15,596 bases of DNA, taken from Chthoniobacteraceae bacterium. Its GTDB lineage: Bacteria; Verrucomicrobiota; Verrucomicrobiia; Chthoniobacterales; Chthoniobacteraceae. The first letter of the stretch is position 1. Every line of letters starts with the position of its first letter. The notes beneath the pieces are model-generated. The model was not told where the DNA came from. It searched no databases and worked only from the letters and a program-made list of their open reading frames with translations. Shown here piece after piece: positions 1 through 8,043 of this stretch. The stretch spans positions 1-15,596 of the forward strand of contig JANNWY010000113.1 of NCBI GenBank assembly GCA_031409335.1. Reading direction: 5' to 3'. The position numbers and the translations under genes are program-made.

Positions 1-1375
1 GATTCCGAACAAAAGGTCCGGATGGAAACTGCTCTCCAGACTCCCGTTGGCGTTGAGCCTGGCCATCGCGCCACCGAGGACCACCTTTCCGTCCGGCTGC
101 AACGCGATGGGAATACCAGAAGTCGTACCCGGGTCAAAGCCGCTGTCCCCGCTGCCGTCGGCATTGAGCCGGGCGATCCCGTGACGGTCGAGTTCTTTGA
201 CAGTCGTGAAAGCACCGCCAATCAACACCTTGCCATCCGGCTGCACGGCGAGAGCCACAACCGAGTTGTTCACGCCCGTGCCCGGATTGAAACTGCCGTC
301 CAGACCGCCATTGGCATTCAAGCGGGCGATGCGGTTGCGGTTCGTACCGTTGACGACCGTGAAATCGCCCCCGATGAAAATCTTCCCGTCCGGTCGCACC
401 GCGAGAGAAGTGACGCCCTGATACCCATCTCCGGTGGCACCCGCGCCTGGGTTGAAGCTGGTGTCGAGCGCCCCATCGGAGTTCAGCCGGGCAATGTTAT
501 TGCGGTTCGTGCCATTGACGGTGAGAAAAGATCCCCCGATGAGCACCTTGCCACCCGATTGCACCACGACAGAATTAACATTGCCGTCCACTCCTGGGCC
601 GGGGTTGAAGCTGTTGTCCAAACTCCCATCCGCATTGAGCCGGGCTATCCCGTTGCGGTTCGTGCCATCCACACTGAAGCCGCCGCCCCAGATGAGCACC
701 TTGCCATCTGGCTGCGCTCCGAGGTGTGAAACCGGACGGTCCACTCCGATGCCCGGATTGAAACTGCTGTCCAAACTCCCATTGCCATTGAGCCGGGCAA
801 TGTAGTTGCGGTTCGTGCCATTGACGGCGAAAAATCGTCCCCCGATGAGTACTTTTCCATCGGTTTGCAAAGCGAGAGAATCAACAAGGTTGTCGGCGCC
901 GGTGCCCGGATTGAAATCGCCGTCCAAGCCGCCATTGGCATAGAGCCGGGCAATGTGGTTGCGGTTCGTGCCATTGATGGTGTTGAACCAACCGCCGATG
1001 AACACCTTGCCATCCGGCTCCAGCGCGATTGACATCACCGCGCCATTCGCTCCGGTGCCCGCATACGTCGAATCGAAACTGCTGTCCGGAGTCCCGTCAG
1101 AATTCAGCCTAAAGATGCCGCGATCGTGACCCGCCAACACCTTGCCATCGGACTGCAAGGCGACCGCGTAAACGGCACCCCAAATCACTGTCCCCGGATT
1201 GAAACTGCTGTCGCCGCTCCCGTCGGCATTGAGCCGAGCGAGACCTGGACGCGCGAGACCTTTGACCGTGGTGAACTGCCCGGCAATGATCACCTTTCCG
1301 TCGGGCTGCACCGCGACGGCCTGCACAGGGCCATTGACGCCCGAGCCGGGATCAAAGGACAGGTCCACGTCCCCT
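1..1375 (-). repeat. Nine tandem ~150-bp coding repeats (delta-60 blades)
   Basis: Recurring + strand strings such as 'gcggttcgtgccattga', 'caccttgccatc', 'cccggattgaaactg' and 'cattgagccggg' at roughly 150-bp spacing. Confidence 0.9.
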
Positions 1376-1467
1376 GCCGCGCCGCGCGAGTGAAAACAGA
1401 GCGTGTTGATTTGCAGCAGGAGACTGCCCGCGAGAATGAGTGTTCTGACCGAGTATAGTTTTTTCAT
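1..1467 (-). CDS. Secreted delta-60 repeat (DUF5122-type) beta-propeller protein; runs off the left edge of the window (at least 489 aa)
   Basis: Not in the ORF track because there is no stop inside the window. Manual translation from ATG at 1467 gives MKKLYSVRTLILAGSLLLQINTLCFHSRAAAGDVDLSFDPGSGVNGPVQAVAVQPDGKVIIAGQFTTVKGLARPGLARLNADGSGDSSFNPG..., open to position 1. It has an N-terminal signal-peptide-like segment and 9 repeats of 'LQPDGKVLIGGxF..NGTNRNxIARLNxDGSLDxSFNPG'. Confidence 0.92.
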   Translation of the reverse strand, partial: MKKLYSVRTLILAGSLLLQINTLCFHSRGAAGDVDLSFDPGSGVNGPVQAVAVQPDGKVIIAGQFTTVKGLARPGLARLNADGSGDSSFNPGTVIWGAVYAVALQSDGKVLAGHDRGIFRLNSDGTPDSSFDSTYAGTGANGAVMSIALEPDGKVFIGGWFNTINGTNRNHIARLYANGGLDGDFNPGTGADNLVDSLALQTDGKVLIGGRFFAVNGTNRNYIARLNGNGSLDSSFNPGIGVDRPVSHLGAQPDGKVLIWGGGFSVDGTNRNGIARLNADGSLDNSFNPGPGVDGNVNSVVVQSGGKVLIGGSFLTVNGTNRNNIARLNSDGALDTSFNPGAGATGDGYQGVTSLAVRPDGKIFIGGDFTVVNGTNRNRIARLNANGGLDGSFNPGTGVNNSVVALAVQPDGKVLIGGAFTTVKELDRHGIARLNADGSGDSGFDPGTTSGIPIALQPDGKVVLGGAMARLNANGSLESSFHPDLLFGI

Positions 1468-1482
1468 AGCATGATGGTCTTT

Positions 1483-1521
1483 CAACCAGTCATGCGACGT
1501 GGGCGCGTGAAACCCCTCAAA
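1483..1521 (-). promoter_or_regulatory. Putative ECF sigma promoter upstream of the delta-60 gene (TTTGAGGGGTTT-N13-CGCATGACTGGTTG)
   Basis: Matches 7432-7470 in two boxes (13/14 and 10/12 nt) with an identical 13-nt spacer length. It ends 15 nt before the ATG. Confidence 0.7.
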
Positions 1522-1596: not shown

Positions 1597-1989
1597 TCAG
1601 TAAACGAATAGCGACAGCGCCAGGAACCCAAAGCCTGCTGCCAGCAAGAGATAATCAAACTGCTTCACGTTGGGGTTGGCGACCACCTTGAGCATGGCTT
1701 GGCGATGTTTTGCCCAATGGAATACATGGTGAAGCGCCATGCACGAGAGCACGGAAAGGAAACCCGTGACGAGCCAACCCCAAGGTCGGTAATGGAGGAG
1801 GGTGGCAAACCATGCCGCCAGCGTAAGTGCGAGCACCAACACCGGCGGGATCAGCAGCCGGGACGGCAAAGTTTCCGAGGCATACTGCTGCTGCCGCCTG
1901 GAATAGAAACGCCGCGATGCGGTCAGCGCCACAGCGGCTTTGACCAACAGCGCTACGGCGATCACGAAACTTAGAATCGGAAACCACAT
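1597..1989 (-). CDS. Small integral membrane protein (about 4 hydrophobic helices), function unknown
   Basis: 130-aa ORF with four hydrophobic stretches (MWFPILSFVIAVALLV, LLIPPVLVLALTLAAWF, WGWLVTGFLSVLSCMAL, YLLLAAGFGFLALSLFVY), co-oriented with its neighbours. Confidence 0.8.
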   Translation of the reverse strand: MWFPILSFVIAVALLVKAAVALTASRRFYSRRQQQYASETLPSRLLIPPVLVLALTLAAWFATLLHYRPWGWLVTGFLSVLSCMALHHVFHWAKHRQAMLKVVANPNVKQFDYLLLAAGFGFLALSLFVY

Positions 1990-1996
1990 TCAATAG

Positions 1997-2044
1997 TCAC
2001 GGTTTGAGAGTTATGGTTTTCCTGGCAGCTTCGGACTGGTCGCA
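1997..2044 (-). repeat. Degenerate copy of the kinase C-terminal coding tail (CDQSEAARKTITLKP*)
   Basis: Ungapped codon alignment gives 31/45 nt to kinase codons FDPADAEKKTVTPSP and 32/48 nt to the 3481-3528 copy, with the stop codon in the same register as that copy. Confidence 0.6.
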
Positions 2045-2093
2045 CTTAAGCGCCCATTTCATAGATTCGGTGCTGCGCTGAATGGTTTCTCCG

Positions 2094-2891
2094 TTAGATT
2101 CGCACAATGTAGCAACTGCCGGATGCTTCTAGCTTCTTCATAGGAATCGCAAGGCGTTGGAAAAGATTCCTAATCTCAGGTTCATTGCGGTAGGGCTGTC
2201 TCTCCGGGGCCGTGTTGATCAGTGAGATGGCATGCTCCCTCTTCCTGAATATTCTTTGCAGATTGAAGGCGACCGTCTTCTCCTTCATCGTCGAAAACGC
2301 CCAGGCACGAAGCGCTAGAATTCCCGCCCGAAAGAAACTTACTTCGGCCTTCCTCGCTACCCAGGCGAACGTCTGAACCGGATTCATCCGGTAAAGTTCC
2401 AGGGTTTCTCTCAGGGACAGGACGTTGTTCCTGAGCAAACCCAGCTTCGCCAGAAACTCTTCTGTGGCAGCGCTCAATTTGTAGAACGCGACAAATATCT
2501 TCCCCGACTGACGTATGGTTCGCCTCGCTTCGTTCAGGATCACTCCGATCTGTTCTTCATCACCCATGAAATCAACAACCCCCGTTGCATAAATAATCGT
2601 TTCGTATGTTCCCTCTCCAAAAGGCAGAGCTTTGGCATCCGCCTCGATAAGGGTAAGCCCACGACGTGACTTGGCGTATCGAATCATCTCGGAACTCAGA
2701 TCGACGCCGTCAGCTTGAAACCCATTCCTGAGCAGTTCTTCCACGATCAGTCCCTGACCTGCACCTACGACCAACACCGGTTGGTGAATGTCATGAATGA
2801 TGCGACGGAGACCCGGCAAATCGAAATAGTTATTTTCAAGAGAAACGTGATGCGGTGCCAGCGCATCCCAATAGTCAGAAGAATGGCTCAT
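2094..2891 (-). CDS. Class I SAM-dependent methyltransferase
   Basis: Motif I VLVVGAGQG, post-I GVDLSSEMI, and EADAKALPF..TYETII. The ATG directly follows the TAA of the GNAT gene. Confidence 0.88.
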   Translation of the reverse strand: MSHSSDYWDALAPHHVSLENNYFDLPGLRRIIHDIHQPVLVVGAGQGLIVEELLRNGFQADGVDLSSEMIRYAKSRRGLTLIEADAKALPFGEGTYETIIYATGVVDFMGDEEQIGVILNEARRTIRQSGKIFVAFYKLSAATEEFLAKLGLLRNNVLSLRETLELYRMNPVQTFAWVARKAEVSFFRAGILALRAWAFSTMKEKTVAFNLQRIFRKREHAISLINTAPERQPYRNEPEIRNLFQRLAIPMKKLEASGSCYIVRI

Positions 2892-3437
2892 TTAGAAAGT
2901 CTTTGAATCCGCCTCCGATTGGTTCGGCAAAATCACGACGCCAAGTGATGCCGCGTCGCTGTGTTTCTCCCATCTCCATACCAATCCGTCCTCCGGGTCG
3001 ATGACCTCGCCGATGTGTCGGAAACCGCATTTGGTCAGGACTCGCGCCGAGGCATTCGATTCCGGGAGCGTGTGTGCCCGGACCACGCGAACCGGCCCGT
3101 GGCTAAAAGCGTAGGTCACCAGGGCGGCGGCGGCTTCGGTCGCGTAACCCTTGCCCTGATGCTCGGGCGCCACACCGCAAGCAATCTCCACCGCTCCTTC
3201 GGCTCCCGGAGGACCCGTGAAGCCACACTTGCCGATGACGCTATCGGTGGCCTGATGCACCAGCACAAAGCCATGAATCCAAGGATCGATCGAACTCGAT
3301 CCGTCTAGCAACGCCAGCCAGGCGGCTGAAACCTCGGCCCTTTCGTAAGGCTGCATTTGCTCGACAGACGCGCGAACCTCATCGCGTGTCTGGGGAACTA
3401 GCTTCAGACTTTTTGTTTGAATGTGCGTCGTGTTCAT
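2892..3437 (-). CDS. GNAT family N-acetyltransferase (RimJ/RimL-like)
   Basis: Acetyl-CoA motif A VAPEHQGKGYATEAA, and motif B AHTLPESNASARVLTKCGF. Confidence 0.9.
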   Translation of the reverse strand: MNTTHIQTKSLKLVPQTRDEVRASVEQMQPYERAEVSAAWLALLDGSSSIDPWIHGFVLVHQATDSVIGKCGFTGPPGAEGAVEIACGVAPEHQGKGYATEAAAALVTYAFSHGPVRVVRAHTLPESNASARVLTKCGFRHIGEVIDPEDGLVWRWEKHSDAASLGVVILPNQSEADSKTF

Positions 3438-3480
3438 AGGACGTGGATCGAGTCCGCTATTTCGCTACTTCCTGATTCGG

Positions 3481-3537
3481 CTACGGTTTGGGATCGGCGG
3501 TTTTCTTTTCGGCTTCGGCCTTATCGAACCCGGACAA
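3481..3537 (-). repeat. Orphan copy of the kinase C-terminal coding tail (LSGFDKAEAEKKTADPKP*)
   Basis: 3498-3529 matches 4135-4166 at 28/32 nt, including a 16-nt exact run 'cggttttcttttcggc'. It ends in an in-frame TAG. Confidence 0.8.
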
Positions 3538-3572
3538 GCTGGAAGGTTTGTGTCGCCCGGCAGTGGCGATGT

Positions 3573-4097
3573 TCACTTTGTCGGCGGTGAAGGCTCGGGC
3601 AGCCAGCCCAACTGTTGGAACTGACCGAGCCGGTCCATGTTCACGGTGATTTCTTGAATCTTCCCATCGGCTATTTGAAAGATGCTGATGCCTGTCACCG
3701 TCACCGTTTTTCCGGTCGGCGCATGCCGCTGATACTCCCCCAGATGCGTGGCACGCATCGTCCAACGAATCGCGATCTTGTTCCCCTCAGCAACCTCCTC
3801 CTCGATGGTGAACCGCAGGTCCGGAAAGGCGGTGTGGAAAGCAGCCATTCCTTGCTTGTACTCCGCCAGACTGTGAACGATGTGCGGCGGATTGCGGAGC
3901 ACGACGTTCGTCGCGATCAAGGCGTCGGCCACGGCCGGGTCGCCGCGATTGGCCCAGCCCTCGAAGTAGCGCCGGACCAGTTCCTTGTTCTGCTGGAGGG
4001 CGTGGTTTCTGTTGGCGGCGCAGCCACACAACAGCGCGACCAACAACACGGCCTGAATTGAGAGGATGGTTCTTAGCCTGTTGTTTGGGGGATTCAT
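3573..4097 (-). CDS. SnoaL-like / ester cyclase (NTF2-fold) protein with a probable lipoprotein signal peptide, 174 aa
   Basis: The likely start is ATG at 4097, overlapping the kinase stop as ATGA, rather than 4436. A hydrophobic stretch ends in the lipobox LLCGC. The core NKELVRRYFE...AFPDLRFTIEEEVAEGNKIAIRWTMRATHLGEY..HAPTGKTVTVTGISIFQIADGKIQE is typical of ester cyclases. Confidence 0.88.
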   Translation of the reverse strand: MNPPNNRLRTILSIQAVLLVALLCGCAANRNHALQQNKELVRRYFEGWANRGDPAVADALIATNVVLRNPPHIVHSLAEYKQGMAAFHTAFPDLRFTIEEEVAEGNKIAIRWTMRATHLGEYQRHAPTGKTVTVTGISIFQIADGKIQEITVNMDRLGQFQQLGWLPEPSPPTK

Positions 4098-4129
4098 TTT
4101 GGTTCTGACTTTTTTGTCGGCGGTGAAGG
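3577..4129. repeat. Exact 17-bp direct repeat TTTGTCGGCGGTGAAGG at 3577-3593 and 4113-4129 flanking the SnoaL gene
   Basis: Direct reading of both sites. The copies encode PSPPT(K) at the end of the SnoaL gene and near the end of the kinase. Confidence 0.85.
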
Positions 4130-7100
4130 AGTGACGGTTTTCTTTTCGGCATCGGCCGGGTCGAACTCCGCCAGCTTTTTCTTCCACTCCGCGGTCTGGT
4201 CCGCCTGGCCAGTGGCTTCGTAGAGTTGCACGAGGCGTTGAAGGGTTTCCTTCATACGCGGGTTGCCGAGGGCGGGAATTTTGTCCTCCCGCTGCTTCAT
4301 GCCTTCGTGACCGGAGAGCAGCAATGGCTCGGCTTCGGCGTATTTCTTCTGCCCGAGCAGACTGCCGCCCAGCAGGCTCCGGGCGTTGAACGTCCGCCAG
4401 TCGTCGGGAAGTTCCTTTTCGCGGAGGGTCAGGCACTCGCGGGCCAGCGGTTCGGACTCGGCGAACTTTTGTTGGACGAGGAGGCTCTTCGCGAACTCTG
4501 CGAGGGAAGCAGCCAATCCTGGGTCATCGGCAGGGAGCTTCCTGAGCAACGCCAACACTTCGCGGTACACGGCTTCGGCCTCGGTAAACTTGCCTTGCTC
4601 CGACAAGGCCCCGCCAAGCCCGTTGAGCGAACTGGCCACGTCCCGATGCTCGTTGCCCAACAGTTTCCTTTGCATTGCCAGCGCCTCACGAAACGAGCTT
4701 TCGGCTTCGGCGTGCCTGTTTTGGTACCAAAGGGTCCTACCAAGCCACTGGAGCGAGGCGGCCACGTTCAGATGCTCATTGCCTAACAGTTTCAGATACA
4801 TCGCCAGTGCTTCGCGAAACGGGCTTTCGGCTTCGGCATACTTACCCTGGCCCGAGAGCGCCGCGCCAAGCCACGAGAGCAAAGCGGCCACCTCCGGATG
4901 TTCGTTGCCTGACCGTTTCCTCCGCATTTCCAGCGCCTCTCGCAGCGTGGCTTCGGCTTCGGCATGCTTGGCTTGTCTCAGGAGGGCCGTGCCCAGCGCG
5001 GAGAGCGAGAGTTGTTCATTGCCCAACAGCCTTCTCTGCATCGCCAGCGATTCGCGAAGCATTTCTTCGGCTTCGGCATGCTTGCCCTGGCCCGAGAGAA
5101 CCGAGCCAAGCCACGAGAGCGAATCGGCCACGTCCGGATTTTCGTTGCCCAACAGTTTCCTCTGCATTGCCAACGCCTCTCGAAATTTTTCTTCGGCTTC
5201 GGCATGCTTCGCTTGTCTCACGAGGTCCGTGCCCAGCAAGGAAAGCGAAATGGCCACGTGTAGATGTTCGATACCCAACAGCTTTCTCCGCATCGCCAGC
5301 GATTCGCGAAGCTTTTCTTCGGCTTCAGAGTGCTTGTCTTGGTCCGAGAGAGCCCTGCCAAGCTCCCCGAGCGAATTGGCCACTAACGGGTGCTCGTCAC
5401 CCGACAGTTTCCTTTCCATGGCCAGCCTCTCGCGAGACACAACCTCGGATTCGGCAAACTTACCCCGGCTCGAGAGGGTCTTGCCAAGCCACGCGAGCGA
5501 CTTGGCCATGTCCCGATGCTCGTTGCCCAACAGTTTCCTCTGCATTGTCAGCGCCTCGCGAAACGAGCTTTCGGCTTCGGCATGCTTGTTTTGGTACCAA
5601 AGGGTCCCGCCAAGGTTCAAGAGCGACTTGGCCACGTCCGGATGCTCATTGCCCAACAGTTTCTTCCGCATCGCCAGCTCCTCACGAAACATTTCTTCAG
5701 CTTCGGCCTGCTTGCCCCGGCCCGCGAGGTCCGCGGCAAGCCACGCAAACGCACTGGCTAAATTGGGATTCCCATTGGCCGACAATTTTCTGCACATGTC
5801 CAGCGCCTCGCGAAACACAGCTTCAGCCTCACCCGTATTTCCTGAGGCGCGGAGCACAGCGGCCAGTTCACGAAGGGAATTAGCCACAAACGGATGCTCG
5901 TCCCCCGAAAGACTTCTCTCGATCGCCAGTTCCTGCCGCAGCACGGCCTCGGCATCGGTCAGGTTGCGCTCCTGACGGAGCTTCGCCCCCAGCTTGCCGA
6001 GGAAGGAGCCGAGCCGTCGGCTCTCGGCGACTTCGGCCTCAGCCTGGCGACGCAATCGCGCTTGATCTTCCTCGGCGGCGACGGCGCGCTGGCGGGCCTG
6101 TTTCTCTTTGAAAAACATCCAGGTCGAAAGCCCAAGCCCAATGACCAGCGCAGCAATGACGGCGCTTGCAGCGGCAAAGGCCAGCTTGTTCCGGCGGACC
6201 AGTTTTTGAAAGCGGTAGCCCGTGCTCGGCGGACGGGCGAGGACGGGCTCATTGTCCAAGTGGCGCTGGATGTCCGCCGCCAGCCCGTTGGCCGTGTCGT
6301 AGCGGCGGGCGCGGTCTTTCTCGAGCGTCTTCATCACGATCCAGTCGAGATCGCCGTGGATCGCGTGGATGAGCTTTGGCGGTTCGCTCGCGCGATGATG
6401 CGCCACGCTCGTCAACTTCTCCTGCGCCATCGTGTGCAGCGCCGTGCTGGGGCGCGCCGGTTCCTCCTCGCGGATGATGCGGCGCATCTCGTCATGGCCT
6501 GCTTTCATGAAGGCATCGGCATCGACGGGCGTGCGACCGGTGAGCAGTTCGTAGAGCAGCACCCCGAGCGCGTAGATGTCCGTGCGCGTGTCGATGTCCA
6601 GCCCGCTCATCTCCGCCTGCTCAGACGACATGTAGAGCGGCGTGCCGATCATCTGCTGGAACTGCGTATAGACAGTGTGCTCGGCGAGCCGGCCCTGCGT
6701 GGCCTTGGCCACACCGAAGTCGATGACCTTCGGCACGGGCACGCCGTCGTGCAGGGTGACGAGGATGTTCGATGGCTTGAGGTCGCGGTGGATGATGCCT
6801 TTCTGATGTGCGTGCTGCACCGCGTGGCAGACGATGATGAAGAGTGCGAGCCGCGCCTCCGTGGGCAGATTCGCCTGGTCGCAGTAGTCGGTGATCTTGA
6901 TGCCGCGCACCAACTCCATGACGAAGAATGGTCGCCCATGCTCGGTCGCGCCCGCATCGAAGACTTTCGCGATGTGTGGATGATCCATCATCGCCAGCGC
7001 CTGCCGCTCCTGCTCGAAACGCGCGACGACCTCGCACGTGTCCATCCCGAGCTTGATGATCTTCAATGCCACGGTTCGCCGCACGGGTTGTTGTTGCTCC

Positions 7101-7431: not shown

Positions 7432-7470
7432 CAACGAGTCATGCGCCGCCGAATGCAGAATCCCTTCAAA
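7432..7470 (-). promoter_or_regulatory. Putative ECF sigma promoter upstream of the kinase (TTTGAAGGGATT-N13-CGCATGACTCGTTG)
   Basis: Lies in the 71-bp gap between the sigma stop and the kinase start, and is a second copy of the 1483-1521 motif. Confidence 0.7.
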
Positions 7471-7473
7471 AAT

Positions 7474-8043
7474 CTAACCCGGTTGATTGCGCGACTTTTC
7501 CATCTCCCGGAAAAGCCACGCGCGCGCAAAACTCCAAAGCCGCTCCGCCGTGCTGATCGAGACACCGAGTTCCTTCGCCGCCTGTTCCTGCGTCAGCCCG
7601 ACAAAGAAACACAGCTTCACCACCTCCGCCGCGCGTGCGTCCACGACGGCCAACCCATCCAAAGCCTCATCGAGCGCGAGCAATTCATCATCCGGCACTG
7701 GCAGCGGCACCTCGACCGCATCCACATCCACGCGCTCCAGCTCGCCACCATGTTTCACTCTCTTTTTCCGCCGCGCCGACTCCACCAAAATCCGCCGCAT
7801 CGCCTCCGCCGCTGCGCCGAAAAAATGCGCGCGATTTTCAAACAGCGGGGCCTCATTCCCGACCAGGCGCAGCCACGCTTCATGCACGAGCGCGGTCGGC
7901 TGCAAGGTGTGGCCCGGATTTTCCTGAGCCATACGATGGGCGGCAAGTCGGCGCAGTTCCGCATAGACGAGCGGGAGCAATTGCCCGGCGGCTTGCGCAT
8001 CGCCTTGCTCCGCGGCTTTGAGGATTTGGGTAACGTTTCGCAT
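7474..8043 (-). CDS. ECF RNA polymerase sigma factor, TIGR02999/ECF43-like (STK-associated), 189 aa
   Basis: Likely start MRNVTQILKAAEQGD at 8043. Family signature LLPLVYAELRRLAA...GHTLQPTALVHEAWLRL...FENRAHFFGAAAEAMRRILVESARRKKR, and region 4 VVKLCFFVGLTQEQAAKELGVSISTAERLWSFARAWL. Confidence 0.93.
   Translation of the reverse strand: MRNVTQILKAAEQGDAQAAGQLLPLVYAELRRLAAHRMAQENPGHTLQPTALVHEAWLRLVGNEAPLFENRAHFFGAAAEAMRRILVESARRKKRVKHGGELERVDVDAVEVPLPVPDDELLALDEALDGLAVVDARAAEVVKLCFFVGLTQEQAAKELGVSISTAERLWSFARAWLFREMEKSRNQPG

Follow-up and report, generated by a model that had tools for sequence, protein, structure and literature searches.

The DNA stretch analysed here (the window, 15,596 nucleotides) is the entire 15.6-kb contig C113 (JANNWY010000113.1) of the 7.9-Mb genome of a Chthoniobacteraceae bacterium (assembly GCA_031409335.1). 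It carries a locus of an extracytoplasmic function (ECF) sigma factor and a serine/threonine kinase (STK), behind which detached 3' ends of kinase genes, referred to below as orphan tails, lie among unrelated genes. On the minus strand, the genes follow each other in the order ECF sigma factor, kinase with a tetratricopeptide repeat (TPR) array, SnoaL-like gene, GNAT gene, methyltransferase, 130-aa membrane protein and DUF5122 propeller (Table 1). The sigma factor scores above the TIGR02999 cut-off and adjoins a Ser/Thr kinase with C-terminal repeats, as in other modules of the ECF-STK-TPR type. The kinase C-terminus, FDPADAEKKTVTPSPPTKKSEPK followed by the stop codon, overlaps the SnoaL ATG; it occurs in a single copy in the host genome, and its closest relatives are mostly in Verrucomicrobiota and Planctomycetota records. 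This live end is called tail 1, while tail 2 lies ahead of the GNAT gene and tail 3 ahead of the membrane-protein gene. A first-pass annotation of the window had described the same overlap, which we confirmed, and had proposed that new DNA is repeatedly inserted at the kinase 3' end, each event supplying a new tail and one passenger gene.

In order to avoid circularity, a 54-nt tail profile was built from 12 other, unrelated kinases, and the contig under study was excluded. Among 15,854,458 genome positions, the three highest scores were obtained at 3478-3531 (tail 2, 59.2 bits), at the live tail (30.3 bits) and at 1994-2047 (tail 3, 28.8 bits), while the next-best position reached 19.3 bits. 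Since these three ranks are ahead of the next match, the tail motif is not a dispersed repeat; a genome-wide repeat unrelated to kinases was one of the findings that, according to the first-pass annotation, would have overturned its proposal. The independent profile check that it had called for thus places tails 2 and 3 first and third genome-wide. The family consensus ends in EFD.AEA.KKTA.PKP and a stop, and the stop register is kept in both orphans; the reported identities to the kinase, 28/32 nt for tail 2 (the FDKAE copy) and 31/45 nt for tail 3 (the CDQSE copy), with stops in a common register, were reproduced. Tail 2 matches the tails of relatives at 40-46 of 54 positions in 7/7 comparisons, against 39/54 for the resident kinase. 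The orphans resemble other kinases more than the resident one and so were not copied locally from its present tail. The flanking copies are mutually only 34-39/54 alike, and tail 3 is more decayed than tail 2. The earlier statement that the best-conserved copy lies nearest the kinase stands as far as the decay of the distal copy is concerned, but the nearest orphan is closer to the tails of relatives than to the resident kinase. Contigs from runs X1 and X2, which may derive from the source sample, cross the junctions with 0-6 differences, and short contigs from a separate study (X4) agree with 1867-2017 and 2042-2192, each showing a single difference. Misassembly was rejected because contigs from two runs cross the junctions. 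No hairpins were found at the junctions (z -0.37 to 0.70). Both orphans are 3' ends of the kinase family.

A third orphan had been claimed at 2892-2927 (PNQSEADSKTF and a stop). This copy scores -35 bits on the tail profile, among 25 tails it matches none better than 16/36, a level attained by 15% of 20,000 random positions, and its 3' half is the native leader of the methyltransferase, as aligned with the homologue in genome G708. It was dropped from the set of tails.

The unit of tail 3 and the membrane gene is also found on intact kinases elsewhere. At locus L136, an intact kinase with the canonical tail is followed, after a 7-nt gap equal to that behind tail 3, by the membrane gene (333/393 nt). 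A tail relic precedes this gene at four of five loci (this contig, L136, C296 and G051; p at most 0.00125), while none was detected ahead of it at the G817 locus (p 0.84). The genes further upstream of relic and membrane gene differ at every locus, and the kinase upstream at G051 carries a different C-terminal domain, which is hydrophobic. Emptier states of the locus exist in other organisms. Kinase and membrane gene are joined in X3 (104 nt on the shorter side), a tail-2-like sequence is joined to the membrane gene in two contigs of X6 (38 and 29 nt), the kinase is joined to a tail-2-like end in X11, and in X12 it is joined directly to the downstream promoter-like region. With 80-82% likeness, these contigs represent other organisms and not deletion variants of this strain. 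The gene content downstream of the kinase is thus variable among relatives, as the proposal of the first-pass annotation requires.

A paralogous zone was observed at a second locus of the same genome (C296:1-4722; L182, L185), on a contig without a kinase. Its order is propeller, 370-aa gene (presumably sulfotransferase-like), tail stub with spacer, 246-aa gene without NCBIfam family, 14-nt tail stub, membrane gene, promoter-like motif and secreted-type gene. The membrane gene there is 88% identical to that at the studied locus, and the stub with spacer matches the studied locus at 30/37 positions. In another membrane-protein homologue (P0010), an ECF-like N-terminus (MSEVTQILQ) is fused in frame, representing another scar of the module.

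The live tail is a chimera carrying a duplicate of the SnoaL 3' end. It departs from the family consensus after KKT (4135), and beyond this point 4113-4129 match the 3' end of the SnoaL gene (3577-3593) exactly over 17 nt, a repeat length attained in 0/300 shuffles. Since SnoaL homologues natively end in the same proline-rich motif, as judged by eye, the copy came from SnoaL; for the same reason, a duplicated kinase target was rejected as the source of the repeat.

Among the passengers, a cassette origin is clear for the GNAT homologues, suggestive for the methyltransferase (G708) and the membrane gene (G817), whose homologues have attC-like flanks, and not seen for SnoaL. The close GNAT homologues encode 159-169 aa, and several are attC-flanked. 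In G093, G130 and G714 they are 83-85% identical with attC-like sites on their flanks, and homology to these three genomes stops just short of the first attC box. At 2892-2950, the stop used by the homologues has been lost from the GNAT gene, and its frame runs on for about 20 codons within the methyltransferase leader. Along the methyltransferase 3' flank, agreement with G708 extends to 2052, the start of the attC-like site of G708, and the sequence then switches to tail 3. As far as the joint, the DNA to the left of tail 3 is thus flanking sequence native to the methyltransferase, and neither an ECF nor a kinase-head remnant occurs in it. Elsewhere in the host genome there are an integron integrase near a contig end (C166:399-1334; 416 bits, above cut-off) and attC-like sites on C122, C268 and C285. 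In the studied contig, no intact attC was detected by fold test, attC finder or profile scan, where the profile comprised 9 sites, some of them doubtful, and the home-made finder used a general consensus motif; among the annotated genes of the contig there is no integrase or recombinase. On the right-half attC profile, 5.6 bits were obtained for the live tail (p 1.2e-3 per position) and a p value of 3.8e-3 at the joint between GNAT and methyltransferase, while the joints of tails 2 and 3 were not significant (p 0.07 and 0.27). Homologues of the GNAT, methyltransferase and SnoaL families occur without kinases, and none of the inspected homologue loci has a kinase tail directly upstream (151 + 401 genomes, 2 candidates scored per genome; 15/30 loci inspected in one follow-up).

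Table 1. Features of the kinase locus and its variable downstream zone.
Feature	Position	Strand	Remarks
ECF sigma factor, TIGR02999 family	7474..8043	-	206.6 bits, cut-off 126; PF07638
Predicted ECF-type promoter ahead of kinase	7438..7469	-	2 mismatches to the 1489-1520 motif; putative function
Ser/Thr kinase with TPR array, 1102 aa	4094..7402	-	Pkinase, TPR_10/12
Live kinase tail (tail 1), family-like part up to KKT	4135..4168	-	
17-nt exact copy of SnoaL 3' end, fused in frame into kinase	4113..4129	-	
SnoaL-like passenger gene	3573..4097	-	PF07366; homologues; ATG overlaps kinase stop
Native 3' end of SnoaL, second copy of 17-nt repeat	3577..3593	-	
Orphan tail 2, FDKAEAEKKTADPKP and stop, canonical family end including post-stop bases	3478..3531	-	59.2 bits; 46/54 to L129
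Tail end and spacer, shared with C296 junction	3454..3490	-	30/37; E 0.012-0.026
GNAT passenger with read-through extension	2892..3437	-	
Methyltransferase native leader, not a tail (3' half of claimed PNQSE copy)	2892..2908	-	G708 alignment
S-adenosylmethionine (SAM) methyltransferase passenger	2094..2891	-	GC 0.51, genome mean 0.62
Native 3' flank of methyltransferase	2052..2093	-	Ends where attC-like site of G708 homologue starts
Orphan tail 3, CDQSEAARKTITLKP and stop, decayed	1994..2047	-	28.8 bits
130-aa membrane-protein gene	1597..1989	-	No Pfam or NCBIfam family
Predicted ECF-target promoter motif bounding variable zone	1489..1520	-	Exact motif in 14/357 loci rows (own and duplicate rows counted)
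DUF5122 beta-propeller gene, runs off contig	1..1469	-	PF17164

We then surveyed related kinase loci for the same arrangement. Behind 197 unique related kinase ends, of which 20 have the canonical tail type and 15 of these at least 2 kb of sequence, no canonical orphan (at least 15 bits) was found in a total of 936 kb of downstream sequence. A short self-similar orphan was found at 1/205 related loci (151 of 159, and 54 further). This is the planctomycete locus L061 (8363-13533), with a kinase, two genes without NCBIfam family, a 110-nt orphan tail, a second kinase and an ECF gene; the layout is that of the studied locus, and the orphan scores higher against the downstream kinase (120) than against the upstream one (92). 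The other self-similarity matches were discarded, being further kinase copies (L025, L139, L249, L277), a long TPR remnant (L159), a non-kinase repeat (L049) or chance (L064, L081). Near the host's five other closest complete kinases no orphan was seen, and the remaining matches were paralogous ends of 136-158 nt or short and weak. In the phylum sample, 7/401 genomes matched, all weakly except the host. The tail pattern gave 9 matches in 8 of the 401 genomes (0 in the control), comprising five live kinases, three chance matches in unrelated genes and one case in G873; a 15-nt tail-end pattern gave 3 matches in 151 family genomes, fewer than the control, and viral contigs and plasmids gave none. 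These results argue for an arrangement that recurs but is rare, a by-product rather than a new machine, and they do not support a common or dedicated system.

Based on these observations, we lean towards a homology-anchored displacement of the kinase body by an incoming kinase with passenger DNA, with a microhomology joint near KLAEF. The orphans would be what remains of earlier kinase genes after displacement of the bodies, namely their final 16-18 codons. The incoming DNA would come from another ECF-kinase locus and consist of the 3' part of a kinase, its own tail and passengers, probably paired through conserved kinase or TPR sequence, so that the old tail and its neighbour gene would be shifted downstream. 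The far end of the piece would lie just beyond the passenger gene, at least once at an attC stump, and may have been joined near the KLAEF codons by microhomology. Homology-facilitated illegitimate recombination could have achieved this in one step; alternatively, there could have been a single crossover, after which the displaced copy eroded. Two events probably account for the locus, first GNAT with methyltransferase and then SnoaL, with the SnoaL end further altered by a local duplication-deletion. Transcription of the passengers is predicted to start at the kinase promoter. We favour this displacement because ECF and head remnants are absent and the distal tail is more decayed; in addition, one joint runs straight from a passenger flank into a tail. 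It seems that paralogous modules recombined without a dedicated recombinase and gave rise to the arrangement as a rare by-product.

The serial insertion put forward earlier thus survives in part, the orphans being kinase 3' ends and the distal unit being found on intact kinases and more decayed, but it loses its third orphan. One tail and one passenger per event is not supported, since a single interval holds both GNAT and methyltransferase, and the SnoaL joint consists of a duplicate of that gene's own end. Several observations weigh against displacement. The donor state, a kinase directly ahead of SnoaL, GNAT or methyltransferase, was not found among the homologues in the 151 + 401 genomes, with 2 candidates scored per genome; orphans are as scarce as described above (0/197 and 1/205); the polarity is based on two orphans; and the joint between live tail and SnoaL requires additional events. 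Furthermore, kinase-domain and C-terminal identities correlate (rho 0.61, 76 loci), and hence no mosaic signal is shown. Finally, G873 indicates that deletion alone yields an orphan with the same right breakpoint.

This last point leads to the main alternative, which we regard as possible but the less probable origin: collapse of a tandem array. From a series of kinase, SnoaL, kinase 2, GNAT, methyltransferase, kinase 3 and membrane gene, microhomology deletions ending at KLAEF would have removed the kinase 2 and kinase 3 bodies, the tails surviving by abutting the start of the next gene, with neither polarity nor capture implied. In G873, a second tandem kinase has collapsed to 45 head residues fused to its tail via a 7-nt microhomology at the same KLAEF position; the fusion tail is EFDQSEAAKKATAKKP with a stop, followed by the ECF start, and the intact form is present in G688. 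Tandem collapse, seen directly in this case, gives the same product as the recombination with paralogous kinase loci advanced in the first-pass annotation. Tandem collapse also agrees with another same-strand ECF or kinase within 3 kb at 51/203 kinase loci (not de-duplicated), with truncated kinase heads in L237, L266 and L278, and with the 17-nt copy of the SnoaL end, a local duplication-deletion at this very locus. On the other hand, no ECF or kinase-head remnant lies to the left of either orphan, the left breakpoint would in both cases need to be situated no more than about 45 nt from a passenger stop, and the passengers must still arrive between kinase copies. In its two-step form, displacement merges with tandem collapse.

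Several further arrangements were observed in this kinase family. The G873 product is a 61-aa head-tail mini-gene between an intact WD40-type kinase and the ECF gene (L333, G873:C109, about 22100-22250). The codons for LLAAHE in the head and those for KLAEFD in the tail are imperfect direct repeats of each other. L266 (G636:C297) and L278 show a mirror pattern, with orphan heads (two in L266) alternating with unrelated DNA ahead of an intact kinase, and in L012 (G563:C126) this C-terminus is shared by three tandem kinases spaced about 3 kb apart.

An integrase-free platform for capture and expression at the 3' end of ECF-kinase genes of the Planctomycetes-Verrucomicrobia-Chlamydiae (PVC) bacteria, which would go beyond displacement as a by-product, appears doubtful to us. 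If true, units of tail and passenger, mostly drawn from the integron cassette pool without attC, would circulate among paralogous kinase loci and be added in order beside the kinase, and selection would retain them in the ECF-controlled transcript.

Action of the host integron integrase in trans is rather improbable. Cassettes would have been inserted at the GTT of KLAEF as a secondary attG-like site, aberrant excision would have taken the tail along with a cassette, and the attC sites would have decayed later. The integrase on C166, the attC-like sites on C122, C268 and C285, the attC or attC-like flanks of the GNAT, membrane-gene (G817) and methyltransferase (G708) homologues, the start of the orphans at or near GTT or GTG, and the two low p values on the right-half profile (live tail and GNAT-methyltransferase joint) are consistent with such action. 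However, no intact attC is present in the studied contig, the joints of tails 2 and 3 do not score significantly, and simple insertion would leave the tail unduplicated. According to the accessible text of a study on IntI1, CRGM is required at positions 6-9 of a hotspot, and insertion fell by more than 2 logs with CCAG in its place (bioRxiv 10.1101/2022.09.11.507474). By this IntI1 rule (GWT and CRGM), GTT is present at the tails, but positions 6-9 read CCAG in the canonical tail, a poor site for IntI1, TAAG in tail 2 and CCCG in tail 1.

Relics of integrative elements that targeted the kinase 3' end and restored it with an element copy (an att duplication), with later loss of the integrase, are very unlikely. 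An integrative element at a gene 3' end is expected to carry its own integrase and to leave a near-identical att duplication. A displaced 3' end with a near-constant start does bound each interval, but no integrase is found among the annotated genes of the 15.6-kb contig, the flanking copies are as divergent as 34-39/54, the intervals measure 0.6 and 1.5 kb, and the viral contigs and plasmids had no match. Chance similarity of lysine- and alanine-rich sequence, which does hold for the PNQSE copy and for 3/9 pattern matches in the 401 genomes, or misassembly is excluded for tails 2 and 3 by ranks 1 and 3 among 15.85 million positions, by the junction-spanning contigs and by the adjacency in intact loci, and we give it practically no weight.

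Outside the variable zone, the motif at 1489-1520 recurs ahead of secreted-type genes, and its two-mismatch version lies ahead of the kinase; we infer that it is the promoter of this ECF sigma factor. This conserved bipartite motif, a candidate target promoter of the ECF group, also stands ahead of secreted-type genes in L011, L013 and L109, up to three times per locus. A promoter and terminator scan gave signal at chance level, and the Protein Atlas offered no usable function for the 130-aa membrane protein. The other part of the contig (8279-15243) contains an HlyD-like gene, a PitA-like transporter (below cut-off) and, in divergent orientation, a phosphate ABC cluster (PstC above cut-off), as well as two paralogous genes which we take to be DUF47/PhoU-like.

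We finally compared the locus with known systems. It shares the ECF-STK-TPR architecture with the kinase-linked ECF groups (PMC7826278) and with the STK-TPR families whose expansion has been ascribed to within-lineage duplication or recombination (PMC11032199), but the accessible text of these two papers makes no mention of orphan tails or passenger arrays. In the open literature, supplements aside, no account of orphan tails at ECF-kinase loci was found. Integron arrays resemble the locus in that a promoter is followed by small, unrelated genes that all point the same way, and the passenger homologues are attC-flanked in a host with IntI; in contrast, no attC is kept here, the integrase is not adjacent (IntI on C166), the hotspot motif of the accessible IntI1 work is absent and the tail is duplicated. 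The locus is not an integron. In the accessible account of homology-facilitated illegitimate recombination in naturally competent bacteria, one homologous anchor and a short-microhomology joint integrate foreign DNA (PMC6382021); here, by difference, the joint would lie inside sequence that is also on the donor, giving a duplicated tail.

The closest likeness is to the arrays of T6SS (type VI secretion system) and Rhs. Sequential displacement has been proposed for the effector-immunity arrays of the V. cholerae T6SS, citing Rhs C-terminal displacement (Kirchberger et al. 2017, PMC5361080), so that, going by the accessible text of that paper, a similar model already exists, although the first-pass annotation was aware of no such description. 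In both settings, there is a conserved upstream anchor with new DNA beside it, the older gene is pushed back and the old 3' end is sometimes kept; homology-facilitated illegitimate recombination was proposed there too, again with no integrase known. As in Rhs, contact-dependent inhibition (CDI) and T6SS arrays, same-strand 3' fragments lie downstream of a live gene, and simpler intermediates exist in other genomes (L136, X3, X6, X12). Unlike in those arrays, there is neither a variable toxic C-terminal domain nor a cognate immunity gene behind each orphan. By comparison with the accessible descriptions, the anchor here is a signalling kinase, the orphan is a conserved tail of 16-18 codons instead of a variable toxin tip, the genes that were shifted encode unrelated enzymes for which the stated selective reason is absent, and kinase-tail arrays are rare. 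Thus, the locus works like the displacement proposed for T6SS/Rhs but is not a member of those arrays.

The rarity of the arrangement limits its importance. Within this limit, the orphan tails provide a readable fossil record of gene gain and end swapping at ECF-kinase signalling loci of PVC bacteria, and through them the displacement model would reach beyond toxin loci to one that serves signalling and brings no immunity benefit. They also suggest a route by which cassette-derived genes may be fixed without attC inside a regulated operon, and the recurring KLAEF breakpoint (twice at this locus and in G873) is a concrete candidate hotspot. Rather than a proven capture system, the feature is a recombination scar of a known kind that occurs in a new setting.

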